This document shows positions 51,182 to 56,245 of a stretch of 64,000 nt of DNA, piece after piece. The stretch comes from a plasmid. The stretch lies in the sequence record NZ_CP118944.1, one strand, 5' to 3'. A model generated the notes under the pieces. The model had not been told where the DNA came from. It saw nothing but the letters and a program-made list of their open reading frames with translations, and searched no databases. The stretch's first letter is position 1, and every line of letters begins with the position of its first letter. The translations under genes and the position numbers were made by a program.

Positions 51182-51219
51182 AAGCTATTGGGGGTTGAAG
51201 TCCAATGGAACGAAAACGT
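51182..51219 (+). repeat. Tn3/Tn1000-type 38-bp IR marking the passenger-side end of a Tn3-like transposon remnant that carries Gabija
   Basis: GGGGTTGAAGTCCAATGGAACGAAAACGTACTAAGGTA vs the Tn1000 IR GGGGTTTGAGGGCCAATGGAACGAAAACGTACGTTAAG; no partner IR found to the right within the window. Confidence 0.65.
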
Positions 51220-51261
51220 ACTAAGGTAAGTAAGTAATTCCATTGTATACTTTCAAAGCAC

Positions 51262-53154
51262 TTACTCTATTTCACTAATGAAACGGGATTTCTGCTGAAA
51301 CCTAAGATCACCCCAAGGCATCATTCTCTGCTTAGGATAAGACACGTACAACCAACGCTTCGCTCTCGTCACCGCGACAAAAGCGTTATTCCGTTCCTCG
51401 TCAAGCTCTTTGACCGTCCTAGCCCTGTAATCAGGAAAAACCCCTTCGCACATCCCTATCAAAAATACAATATCCTTTTCTAAACCTTTCATCGTATGCA
51501 CAGTACTTAGGGTTAGGCCTTCATCTATACTACTTTCAGAAAGTTGGCCTAATGCCAATGCATTTCTAAATGCAACCAATGAATCACCTAAGCCTTTACG
51601 CTTGAATCGGGTCCACGTACTACTAAACTCTTTAAGCTCTTCAATACTCAGTTTAACGTCTTCTATTTTATCATCCGAAACACCGTTATGGTTTTCAACC
51701 AACGATGTAAGAAGTTCATTAAAATCCTTTACTAGTTTGGGGATTTTAGGGTTTTCAATATCTAAGTTGTCAATAGCAACAAGAAGTTTTTCGAATATCG
51801 TAGAGTACTCATCTAATGCTGATGAAATTTGAGATGCCATTTCCCGCAATACATTCGTTGTCCAGTTGGCTGGCTCAGAGATACTCAGTACTTGGCATAA
51901 CTTTTTCCCATCTACCCAATCTTTAGAATTCAACTTCACCCTAATGGCATAGTCTAAGACCTTTCCGAATCTAGTTGACGGCTCAAGCTGCCTTTCTCCT
52001 TTTCTCAAAGAGTAAGGTATCGAATTATCTTCAAGGCATTTTTCAAGCTTGCCAAAAACAAATCGATTGCGGCCAATCACTACCATATTACCTAATGATA
52101 TTTTTCCTTCAATATCATCGTGAATTTTTAATGCCAAAAGATTCTTTATCGTGGCAACAACCGCAGTAGCTTCATCCTCTTCAGAATTATATTCTGAAAT
52201 GCTAACTCCACCCTCTAAGGCATAATCAATCTCTGCTTGTGAGCCTGGCCGCAACTTGTTTGCCGCACGAATAACCGACTTAGTACTGCGATAGTTTTCC
52301 TTCAGCTCAAACTTTTGAGGCATAAAATCGTTAATGAAACTTGAGCAGAAGTAGTCTTTTGATGACCCATTAAACCCATAAATCATTTGATTAGGGTCTC
52401 CTACCATCAGAATGCTTTTTATCACATCACCGCAAAGCACCTTGATAAACTCATACTGTGCTTTATTAAGATCTTGGGCTTCATCAACACAAACATGTTT
52501 ATACTGTGAGCGGTATATTTTTGCGATCCAGTCGTACGTGAGCAGTATTCGATGGGCGTACACTAAAATATCGTCATAATCGATACCCCCACTATTTAGT
52601 AGTGCAGCTTGATAGTCCTGATATATTTTCCAAATATTATTATTTTGATATAGCTCAATGACTTCCAACTCTGTAAGCAGCTCCCTTTTTATTTTCGAAA
52701 ATATATCCATATAGGATTGAAGATTTCTTTCCCTGTTTTTTAGTTCCTTTGAATCGGTAATTGCTAGATATTCATCTATATTAGTGCCATCTTCACGTAA
52801 AGATTGTATAAAGACTTCCATTCGGTCTTTATCTCTATCATATATATGCAACTCCGATGGCAAACCAACGGTATGGCCATATTTCTCCAAAACACGCTGT
52901 GCGACCGAATGAATTGTGGCGATCCAAGTTCTGTTTTCTACTTGTTCGAAGTCGATTAAACGCTCACTCATTTCTTCTGCAGCTTTATTCGTGAAGGTGA
53001 GTGCGATAACACCGTCTTTTTTTGTTTTCTCCAAAATATATCGAACACGCTCTGTTAACACTCGCGTTTTACCAGAACCTGCTGATGCAAGTACTTGAAT
53101 GGCTGTATCCATAGGAGCCTCAACGATCTGGCGCTGAGCATTTGATAGATTCAT
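51262..53154 (-). CDS. gajB: Gabija GajB-like UvrD/PcrA-family helicase
   Basis: Walker A …LASAGSGKTRVLTERV…, …LTFTNKAAEEMSERL…, and UvrD motifs through the C-terminus; immediately downstream of the OLD-family ATPase gene. Confidence 0.75.
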   Translation of the reverse strand: MNLSNAQRQIVEAPMDTAIQVLASAGSGKTRVLTERVRYILEKTKKDGVIALTFTNKAAEEMSERLIDFEQVENRTWIATIHSVAQRVLEKYGHTVGLPSELHIYDRDKDRMEVFIQSLREDGTNIDEYLAITDSKELKNRERNLQSYMDIFSKIKRELLTELEVIELYQNNNIWKIYQDYQAALLNSGGIDYDDILVYAHRILLTYDWIAKIYRSQYKHVCVDEAQDLNKAQYEFIKVLCGDVIKSILMVGDPNQMIYGFNGSSKDYFCSSFINDFMPQKFELKENYRSTKSVIRAANKLRPGSQAEIDYALEGGVSISEYNSEEDEATAVVATIKNLLALKIHDDIEGKISLGNMVVIGRNRFVFGKLEKCLEDNSIPYSLRKGERQLEPSTRFGKVLDYAIRVKLNSKDWVDGKKLCQVLSISEPANWTTNVLREMASQISSALDEYSTIFEKLLVAIDNLDIENPKIPKLVKDFNELLTSLVENHNGVSDDKIEDVKLSIEELKEFSSTWTRFKRKGLGDSLVAFRNALALGQLSESSIDEGLTLSTVHTMKGLEKDIVFLIGMCEGVFPDYRARTVKELDEERNNAFVAVTRAKRWLYVSYPKQRMMPWGDLRFQQKSRFISEIE

Positions 53155-53155
53155 A

Positions 53156-54979: not shown

Positions 54980-54983
54980 TATC

Positions 54984-55538
54984 TCAACCCTGTTTATTAT
55001 TAAAAATTTTGTAAACCGTAGAGCGACCAATGTTTAACTTTCTGGCAATTTCTGTAGCCCCAAGACCTTGCTCACGAAGGGAAAATACTTCTTTTTTGTT
55101 AACCGTAGGTTTTCGACCAAATTTAATTCCTTTGGCCTTTGCTTCTACACGGCCTTCATTTGTTCGCTCAAGTATCCTCTGACGCTCAGCTTGGGCGACC
55201 GCTGACAAAATAGTAACCACCATCTTCCCCATCACCCCTTCAGTGCTGATCCCATCATCGAGGAACCGGATGGATACACCCATTTTATCAAATTCCTTGA
55301 TGAGCTGGATCATGTCAGCTGTATCACGGCCCATTCGGTCAAGTTTCTTCACCAAGATAACATCGCCTTCTTCCACTTTAAGCTGGAGCATCTGGAGACC
55401 TTCGCGATTTGCATGGCTTCCTGATTCCTTGTCAGTGAAAATTCGGTTGGTACGGACACCTTCGCCCTGAAGAGCCTTAACCTGTATATCAAGTGACGGT
55501 TGACTGGTGGAGACTCGAGCATATCCGAAGAGTCTCAT
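54984..55538 (-). CDS. tnpR: Tn3/gamma-delta-type resolvase TnpR
   Basis: [37 protein letters not shown]…[27 protein letters not shown]…[24 protein letters not shown]… is about 75% identical (from memory) to gamma-delta/Tn3 resolvase. Confidence 0.9.
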
Positions 55539-55703
55539 AGCGACTTTATCTCCCAAATAAATTAGTAGACCTTGTGTCTAATAAGTAGTTGATTATTGAC
55601 TTAACAGACAGTTTATGATGTTAACTTTATTGTGTCCACAATGTTATAAATTAATAGACACTAAAAATGTCTCGCATTTTTGGCAGCCTTGCTTGGGGGA
55701 TAC
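55539..55703. promoter_or_regulatory. res site between divergent tnpR and tnpA of the Tn3-like remnant
   Basis: Palindromic resolvase-type subsite TGTCTAATAAGTAGTTGATTATTGACTTAACAGACA and further TGT…ACA elements; position as in Tn3. Confidence 0.55.
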
Positions 55704-56245
55704 ATGCCCGTCGATTTTCTAACCTCGGAACAGAAAGCCTGCGATAGACAATTCTCTGCCGAACCGAATGAAGTGCAATTGGCCCGTTACTTTCATCTGG
55801 ATGAAGCCGACCAGGCTTTTATCAATCATCGGCACGGCAATCAGAACTGTTTTGGTGTTGCTTTGCAGTTAGGCTGCGTGCGATTTCTAGGGACCGTCAT
55901 ATCCAACCTGCAACATGTTCCGGTCATACAGTGCAGGCTTCCGAGCTGATCCGCTCGCTACTGAAAAGTGACCGGCCTTCCAGCCTGGCACAAGCCATCA
56001 TTGAAGTGGACCGTATCAATAAGACACTTTACTTGCTGAACTACGTAGATATATATAGGGCGTTACTACGACAAGCAAAGACGCTGGTCGGACTACGGCC
56101 CCGATAACGGGTTGCGGTTCGGGATACTGTAGCTGAGCGACAAGTCATCTACACTGAGCCCTGCGGTTTGTCCCCAGAACCGTCCGAGAACTGATTGAGG
56201 ACGATGATTGCCAACGCCGTGCGGGGCTTTTTCCTTGGTTATCGG
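55704..56245 (+). pseudogene. tnpA: Tn3-type tnpA remnant: intact N-terminus (~80 codons) fused to decayed C-terminal fragments after a large internal deletion
   Basis: [64 protein letters not shown]… (Tn3 TnpA starts [36 protein letters not shown]…); then …SLAQAIIEVDRINKTLYLLNYVD… resembles …[23 protein letters not shown]…; multiple stops. Confidence 0.7.

Follow-up and report, generated by a model that had tools for sequence, protein, structure and literature searches.

Tn3 and Tn1000 (gamma-delta) both have a 38-bp inverted repeat (IR) that begins with GGGG, and divergent tnpA and tnpR genes around a res region. Each houses a passenger between tnpR and the IR, this being bla in Tn3 and a 698-aa open reading frame (ORF) in Tn1000. 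Gabija has been validated in Bacillus cereus, where GajA and GajB form a complex. GajA of this system is a DNA-nicking TOPRIM endonuclease that is held off by normal nucleotide levels; phage infection lowers these, whereupon GajA cuts DNA, and GajB senses DNA ends and hydrolyses (d)ATP/(d)GTP, aborting infection. Features of both systems come together in a 64,000-nt stretch of a plasmid (NZ_CP118944.1; this whole stretch is referred to herein as the window), at positions 51190-56052. We consider it very probable that this segment is the immobilised remnant of a replicative unit transposon of the Tn3 subgroup (Tn3/Tn1000-like), with a Gabija pair in its passenger arm, i.e. from tnpR to the IR.

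The order of the element is a Tn1000-like IR, gajB, gajA, tnpR, res and two scraps of tnpA. The GGGG-initiated IR, the divergent genes around res and the position of the passenger are thus as in Tn3 and Tn1000, whilst the window copy differs from both in being without most of tnpA and one IR. A further difference lies in spacing, as bla of Tn3 starts 182 nt after tnpR, whereas gajA of the window is only 4 nt from it. As in Gabija of B. cereus VD045 (PDB 8SM3, 8TK0, 8J4T and others), a gene for an OLD ATPase/TOPRIM GajA is followed by one for a UvrD-like GajB. The individual features are as follows:

51190-51226, plus strand: terminal IR of the Tn3 subgroup, Tn1000-like, with its outer end at 51190 and a 2-nt internal deletion
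51262-53154, minus strand: gajB, UvrD-like SF1 helicase of 630 aa, intact
53156-54979, minus strand: gajA, OLD-family ATPase and TOPRIM nuclease of 607 aa, intact
54984-55538, minus strand: tnpR, serine resolvase of 184 aa, intact, with Pfam domains Resolvase and HTH_7
55539-55703, no strand: res region, 165 bp between the divergent tnpR and tnpA, aligned with the Tn1000 res and six relatives
55704-55925, plus strand: tnpA remnant 1, TnpA residues 1-74, Pfam DUF4158
55928-56050, plus strand: tnpA remnant 2, TnpA residues 836-876, part of the DDE domain (Pfam DDE_Tnp_Tn3 positions 251-290)
56051-56053, no strand: truncation junction, placed by three-way comparison of the window, the Photorhabdus tnpA and the empty-site plasmid L001

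Extent and present state of the element

When the region was compared with PLSDB by megablast, six Aeromonas plasmids matched it in the flanks only, their site being empty. In these plasmids, from Aeromonas salmonicida, A. veronii and A. hydrophila, the equivalent of window 51089-51190 is joined to that of 56053 onward, such that 51190-56052 stands out as a single inserted block of 4.86 kb. Within A. salmonicida NZ_CP124843 (L001), positions 3626-3728 correspond contiguously to window 51089-51190, and positions 3814-7361 to window 56053-59600 (99.2 % identity), with just 85 bp between the two matches. Relative to L001, the left boundary of the insertion is the outer end of the IR, at 51190, and the right boundary falls within tnpA. 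Everything from 56053 is plasmid backbone, shared with plasmids that have no insertion. The sequence-only reading had carried the element to 56245, but its actual end is at ~56052. That reading had also proposed that the missing IR be sought beyond the AbiE region, yet AbiE (57174-58530) is itself backbone that is present in the empty-site plasmids. Separately from the insertion, and ~100 bp from it, a 333-bp Hok/Gef toxin segment of L001 (3293-3625) is missing from the window at 51089-51091.

The IR of the window, GGGGGTTGAAGTCCAATGGAACGAAAACGTAC--TAAG, shares 33 of 36 positions with the IRs of Tn1000, as taken from plasmid F, and has 2 nt deleted; the sequence to the left of gajB, from 51190, is GGGGGTTGAAGTCCAATGGAACGAAAACGTACTAAG. 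A 38-bp IR matching Tn1000 had previously been placed at 51182, and whilst the match holds, the start lies 8 nt further right. In copies of the element discussed below, homology on the IR side ends at the equivalent of 51190 (Xenorhabdus) and 51186 (Photorhabdus). No partner IR in the right orientation was found in the window in a search to 12 mismatches, in agreement with the earlier failure to find a second IR. Two candidates, at 7667-7704 (plus strand) and 41878-41915 (minus strand), were rejected on account of wrong place or orientation. The first is a Tn1000-like IR, GGGATTGATGTCCAACGGAACGAAAACGTACGTTAGCG, with 9 mismatches to that of the Gabija element; the second is a weak Tn3-family IR-like sequence with 12.

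As had been recognized from the sequence, tnpA is internally deleted. Its two remnants display 86 % (remnant 1) and 93 % (remnant 2) identity by tblastn, the former to a Shewanella Tn3-family TnpA, and ~2.3 kb is deleted between them. At the truncation junction the tnpA frame ends with GTAGAT and the backbone restarts at ATATAGGGCG; lost here are the remainder of tnpA, the right IR and ~85 bp of backbone. With the right end deleted, only the left flank is left in which to look for a 5-bp target duplication. Members of the Tn3 subgroup have two IRs of ~38 bp starting with GGGG, a DDE transposase of ~1000 aa and a serine resolvase with res between divergent tnpA and tnpR. The window element retains the last of these, together with one IR and residues 1-74 and 836-876 of TnpA, and is therefore a remnant rather than a complete member of the family.

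The empty-site comparison, and the existence of relatives with both IRs and a duplicated target, indicate that an ancestor with the order IR-tnpA-res-tnpR-gajA-gajB-IR inserted itself between genes of a conjugative plasmid of Aeromonas. A later deletion inside tnpA then removed TnpA residues 75-835, and a further one the tnpA end, the right IR and the ~85 bp of backbone, as both junctions directly show. Left with one IR and without a transposase, the element is immobile. One could argue that it still moves, since one-ended transposition occurs in the Tn3 family, one IR and an intact tnpR and res are left, and transposase might be supplied in trans: the window has two other Tn3-family tnpA genes and the additional Tn1000-like IR at 7667-7704. 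The TnpAs in question are, however, just 31 and 28 % identical to this lineage, making their action on this IR unlikely; there is no second IR in the required orientation within the window, and an identical TnpR was found in the same plasmid context in 10 of the 10 contigs read. Continued mobility is consequently very unlikely. The distant tnpA genes lie at 11243-14074 and 35332-38145, and the window also has several resolvase homologues.

Complete and decaying relatives

Relatives were collected by scanning one genome per species for GajA, and then searching the flanks for TnpR, TnpA and IRs. The unit IR-gajB-gajA-tnpR-res-truncated tnpA recurs at different sites in other genera. In Xenorhabdus japonica (L015) it displays 90.7 % nucleotide identity over 4734 nt, the match running as far as the IR's outer end. 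This copy has a different tnpA deletion, leaving aa 1-137 and 925-1001, and the right IR is absent, homology to an intact relative stopping exactly at the inner edge of the IR. In Photorhabdus africana (L095) the unit, which is ~90 % identical at the nucleotide level, lies between IRs at 4803-4841 and 11754-11792 and is flanked on both sides by ATTAC, a 5-bp target duplication of the kind that is a hallmark of Tn3-family transposition. Its tnpA is without aa 67-245, the third distinct deletion. Two marine metagenome contigs (L110 and L111) harbour more distant versions, with 86 % aa identity for tnpR, 76 % for gajA and gajB, one IR and differing flanks.

A further metagenome contig (L144) led to a complete record, the Yersinia massiliensis GTA plasmid NZ_CP028488 (L179). 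The element found here, at 8073-15653 (7581 bp), is bounded by two Tn3 IRs that are perfect over 38 bp, and encodes a TnpA of 1001 aa, in which both Pfam domains are present, along with TnpR, GajA and GajB. Its first 3637 nt are 94.7 % identical to an Escherichia coli Tn3-type transposon with blaTEM; homology between the two stops inside tnpR, ~145 nt before its stop codon, and resumes only in the terminal IR. This element is thus, literally, Tn3 with gajAB in place of bla. Its annotation in the record is generic (Tn3-like element Tn3 family transposase, recombinase family protein, AAA family ATPase and ATP-dependent helicase), and this version was present in none of 5,426 complete E. coli genomes. 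A degenerate IR-like sequence can be seen just inside the functional IR of the Yersinia element (L179 ~11100-11229; CCTCACGGTAAGTTTTCGCTCTGTTGGCCTCC), and also in L110 at 4396-4434, which looks like a relic IR of an earlier carrier.

A whole contig of Photorhabdus antumapuensis (L068; contig_54, 1-7640) is bounded by 36-bp inverted repeats starting GGGGTACCGT. It encodes a TnpA of 1005 aa (23 % identity to the window lineage) and a resolvase of 204 aa (31 %), followed by gajA and gajB, each of which is split into two ORFs in this draft assembly. This is an independent Tn3-family lineage, from another subgroup, with Gabija in the same slot. A Limnobacter metagenome-assembled genome (L055) displays a resolvase-gajA arrangement resembling that of L068. 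Two IRs are accordingly present in the P. africana, Yersinia and P. antumapuensis copies. The tnpR/gajA junction pattern was found in 12 retrieved loci, including a JGI contig; an exact-pattern scan for it in a metagenome contig collection gave no match, which reflects the contents of that collection and not absence of the arrangement.

It had been suggested from the sequence alone that a Tn3-family transposon trafficked this defence system, and that intact carriers should be sought. The first proposal is borne out by the empty sites, the recurring unit, the P. africana copy with its IRs and ATTAC duplication, and the complete Yersinia Tn3: as the same unit is found in relatives with IRs and, once, a target duplication, the window unit was a transposon carrying Gabija. 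As to the second, the Yersinia element is complete, but no intact copy of the exact variant was recovered. A look-up of identical TnpR proteins gave only the same truncated Aeromonas plasmid context, and the megablast of PLSDB revealed no plasmid with this tnpR, returning only the empty sites and gajAB pairs of 80 % identity in other contexts.

Amongst the close relatives of GajA (85-87 % aa identity), the transposon parts are eroded to an increasing degree. On a Providencia-like contig tnpR is still intact, but tnpA is gone and the IR is degenerate; in two wastewater contigs tnpR is frameshifted and the IR is without its GGGG; several loci retain just 80-170 nt of tnpR upstream of gajA, and Vibrio fluvialis only 30 nt of its 3′ end. 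A neighbour-joining tree of GajB groups the window copy with those of Xenorhabdus and Photorhabdus, and places copies with tnpR remnants as sister to this clade.

Some observations weigh against the reading of Gabija as transposon cargo. No target duplication flanks the Yersinia element, which lies between TATTC and TAATA. Some 55 of 70 gajAB loci are homologous over the two coding sequences only, and are without transposon features. Transposon-linked GajB proteins also fall in three separate places of the neighbour-joining tree, among copies with no transposon context, with the marine and Yersinia transposon copies placed elsewhere than the window clade. The linkage may have arisen more than once, rather than ancestrally. 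A Providencia-like locus (L183, 7300-7441) bears a hybrid res site I, ATATTTCGGACGGTTGC, which belongs to the window lineage to the left of its TCATAA/TTATAA centre and to Tn3/Tn1000 sequence to the right. Such a pattern would be expected if resolvase had exchanged the tnpR-gajAB arm between different transposons.

The abundance of transposon-free gajAB loci, along with the unrelated neighbours of the 80 %-identical pair on E. coli and Klebsiella plasmids, could be taken to mean that gajAB arrived by other means beside an unrelated Tn3-family relic, and was never its passenger. Such a coincidental juxtaposition is largely refuted, and we regard it as highly improbable: comparison with the empty sites shows the block to be inserted in its entirety as one piece, a block with the same IR boundary lies at other sites in Xenorhabdus and in Photorhabdus, in one case between two IRs and with 5 bp duplicated, a complete Tn3 has gajAB in the position of bla in Y. 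massiliensis, and the 4-nt tnpR-gajA junction is conserved across copies.

Function and expression of the tnpR-gajA-gajB string

The passenger slot had been read as holding a pair of genes with Gabija architecture, and protein models uphold this. GajA contains the Pfam domains AAA_15, DUF2813 and OLD-like_TOPRIM, and matches the PADLOC model PDLC00067 over its full length (E 6e-259). Retained motifs include Walker A K37, Walker B E309/E310, and the TOPRIM residues E400 and D456/E458; in an alignment to B. cereus GajA, E400 falls with E379 and K37 with K35. GajB has UvrD-helicase (E 4e-62) and UvrD_C domains, a full-length match to PADLOC model PDLC00132 (E 7e-288) and helicase motifs I, II and VI (GSGKT 26-30, DEAQD 224-228 and VAVTRAK 593-599, respectively). 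The locus hence provides an ATPase and TOPRIM GajA with its catalytic residues and, immediately 3′, a UvrD-like GajB. By analogy, its action would follow the B. cereus mechanism.

Set against this assignment is the weak and partial similarity to the validated B. cereus proteins (phmmer E ~5e-9 for GajA and 4e-10 for GajB), with GajB being much closer to UvrD of E. coli (E 1e-55) than to its B. cereus counterpart. At 630 aa, GajB of the window is UvrD-like throughout, whereas the solved B. cereus GajB chains are of 493-499 aa, and GajA carries a DUF2813 signature, unlike its B. cereus counterpart. Low homology to validated Gabija, for instance through absent TOPRIM catalytic residues, had been named in advance as grounds for abandoning the idea; the homology is indeed low, but the residues are present. 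Because the B. cereus similarity is low, the Gabija assignment is founded on the matches to PADLOC models, on the arrangement as two genes and on the motifs for catalysis, and phage resistance by this subtype (PDLC00067/PDLC00132, with a 630-aa GajB) is putative.

The ratio of non-synonymous to synonymous substitution rates (dN/dS) between the window and two close relatives is ~0.10-0.12 for gajA and ~0.10-0.11 for gajB. For tnpR, compared with the Xenorhabdus and Photorhabdus copies, it is 0.17-0.37. These three genes are intact in all of the window, Xenorhabdus and Photorhabdus copies, whilst tnpA is broken differently in each, so that tnpR, gajA and gajB appear to be under purifying selection and still working. 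The low similarity to validated Gabija and the closeness of GajB to UvrD leave room for a nuclease-helicase pair that is not directed at phage but serves the transposon or plasmid, in DNA processing during replicative transposition, plasmid competition or repair; a tight tnpR-gajA-gajB string in at least two distantly related Tn3-family lineages could point to such functional coupling. That the pair lacks a defence role is nevertheless unlikely. Both proteins have full-length PADLOC Gabija matches with E values below 1e-250, and most gajAB relatives lie outside of any transposon. Moreover, strong purifying selection on gajAB continues after tnpA loss, indicating a value that is independent of transposition. 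The pair also lies in a plasmid defence cluster, between type III restriction-modification and AbiE.

TnpR is 73.5 % identical to the gamma-delta resolvase and 73.1 % to that of Tn3 (E 4e-82 and 3e-82, respectively), and keeps S10, R8, R68 and R71. The sequence-only reading of tnpR at 54984-55538, and of the tnpA N-terminus at 55704, as close to gamma-delta/Tn3 genes is thus sustained, by a TnpR identity of ~73 % and by the DUF4158 domain. The closest DNA to tnpA and tnpR (77.5 %) is a Shewanella mercury-resistance transposon, rather than Tn3 or Tn1000. Relative to the Xenorhabdus and Photorhabdus copies, synonymous divergence (dS) is 0.09-0.15 for tnpR, 0.41-0.47 for gajA and 0.28-0.32 for gajB. 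The lower value for tnpR hints at recombination within the element, or at differing constraints between genes. Within res, site I was delimited by palindrome search at 55633-55660 (28 bp; TGTCCACAATGTTATAAATTAATAGACA), and aligns with that of Tn1000, which likewise has 28 bp and a TTATAA centre. Subsites II and III were aligned as part of the region.

With regard to expression, the start codon of gajA (ATG, 54979) lies 5 nt past the last base of the tnpR stop (54984), as previously read, leaving a 4-nt spacer; from copy to copy this junction is almost identical in sequence. The ATG of gajB follows the gajA stop by 1 nt, with GGAG upstream. Consensus scans predicted no terminator between tnpR and the IR, and found no promoter-like match at the tnpR-gajA junction. 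The sole promoter-like site near the start of the gene string is in res (TGGACA-17-TAAACT, minus strand, 55638 to 55610), where it overlaps site I and is directed towards tnpR. Owing to the 4-nt and 1-nt spacers, and with neither terminator nor junction promoter predicted, tnpR-gajA-gajB most likely forms one operon transcribed from the res promoter. The promoters within res of Tn3 and gamma-delta are repressed when resolvase binds there, and on this basis Gabija expression would be autoregulated by TnpR binding to res. Tempering this view, the promoter call is a 9/12 consensus match, from a scan that found fewer sites than in shuffled sequence, and both co-transcription and control by TnpR are inferences.

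Resolvase/res modules can stabilise plasmids, and TnpR with res would probably also be able to resolve plasmid multimers. It is conceivable, albeit tentative, that tnpR and res have been kept for this purpose, neither driving nor regulating gajAB, with their proximity being historical. The catalytic residues of TnpR are complete and res site I is intact, and the dS values of tnpR and gajA suggest partly separate histories. On the other hand, the chromosomal Xenorhabdus and Photorhabdus copies keep an intact tnpR as well, and the close spacing, with no terminator or internal promoter-like site, favours a single transcript. The two roles are not mutually exclusive. A broader proposal, which at present is rather doubtful, is that Gabija, rather than being loose cargo, became an integral part of the resolvase operon in two or more distant lineages of Tn3-family transposons, with its expression set by TnpR and res, and that tnpR and res were retained as a regulatory module once the transposase had decayed. 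If true, a transposon would here have been domesticated on a small scale, the host keeping tnpR and res as a ready-made promoter module, which would explain the intact tnpR in every copy with a deleted tnpA.

Tn3-type carriage of Gabija amongst known passengers

Few vehicles have spread antibiotic-resistance genes on plasmids as successfully as the Tn3-family transposons. The loci described herein show such vehicles, including Tn3 itself, moving a phage-defence system between plasmids and chromosomes, in hosts that include Aeromonas, Photorhabdus, Xenorhabdus, Yersinia and Providencia-like bacteria. This gives defence systems one more way to spread, and accounts for the assembly of the type III restriction-modification, Gabija and AbiE cluster; the series from complete to eroded copies, in turn, documents cargo becoming fixed whilst its vehicle decays. 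On the left side of this cluster, the type III restriction-modification pair lies within 45682-50433, and comprises a 578-aa ORF (45682-47418), the counterpart of which in a near-identical contig has an N6_N4_Mtase domain, and the restriction enzyme (47428-50433; PADLOC REase_III, E 0). AbiEi/AbiEii (57174-58530) stand on the right.

A full-text literature search of open-access papers found no report of Gabija on a Tn3-family transposon. Passenger-bearing Tn3-family transposons and Gabija on Tn7-like elements are both already established, as are defence genes on mobile elements in general, which makes the present finding useful rather than surprising: it is a clear and well-supported example, accompanied by a complete relative and by copies at successive stages of erosion, yet it brings no new principle.

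The passenger slot itself is variously occupied. In the closest Shewanella relative (L013) it contains a mer operon, and in a related Tn3-family element of Aeromonas sobria pASCH21 (L014, 6694-7165) a RelE/ParE toxin-antitoxin pair directly 3′ of tnpR. The 698-aa protein of Tn1000, annotated as hypothetical in plasmid F (L180, NC_002483.1; 4303-6399), is encoded 15 nt downstream of tnpR. It displays an N-terminal P-loop (ORC-CDC6-like) just below the Pfam cutoff, and in its C-terminal portion a match to PDC-M36A (E 2e-11), a PADLOC model for candidate defence genes, such that classic gamma-delta may itself carry a defence gene. Lima-Mendez et al. 2020 reportedly described Tn3-family transposons with toxin-antitoxin passengers beside tnpR/res. 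Those passengers, small modules for stability or of a defence-like kind, also sit next to the resolution module, whilst the cargo of the window is instead a 3.7-kb nuclease-helicase system.

Of the systems compared, Tn3 with gajAB from Y. massiliensis resembles the window in its order (IR-tnpA-res-tnpR-gajA-gajB-IR) and in its best PADLOC models (PDLC00067/PDLC00132), but is complete, with GajA and GajB that are 58 and 71 % identical, respectively, to those of the window. Gabija cargo is also documented for integrative and conjugative elements and for prophages, and OLD-nuclease/Gabija is listed in 338 Tn7-like transposons (Benler et al. 2021, PMC8649781). The Tn7-like carriers are like the window element in having Gabija as transposon cargo. 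They differ from it in their machinery, a heteromeric TnsABCD/TniQ system as opposed to the single DDE TnpA and serine resolvase of the replicative Tn3 type, and in that the cargo of the window would, unlike theirs, be fused into the resolvase operon.

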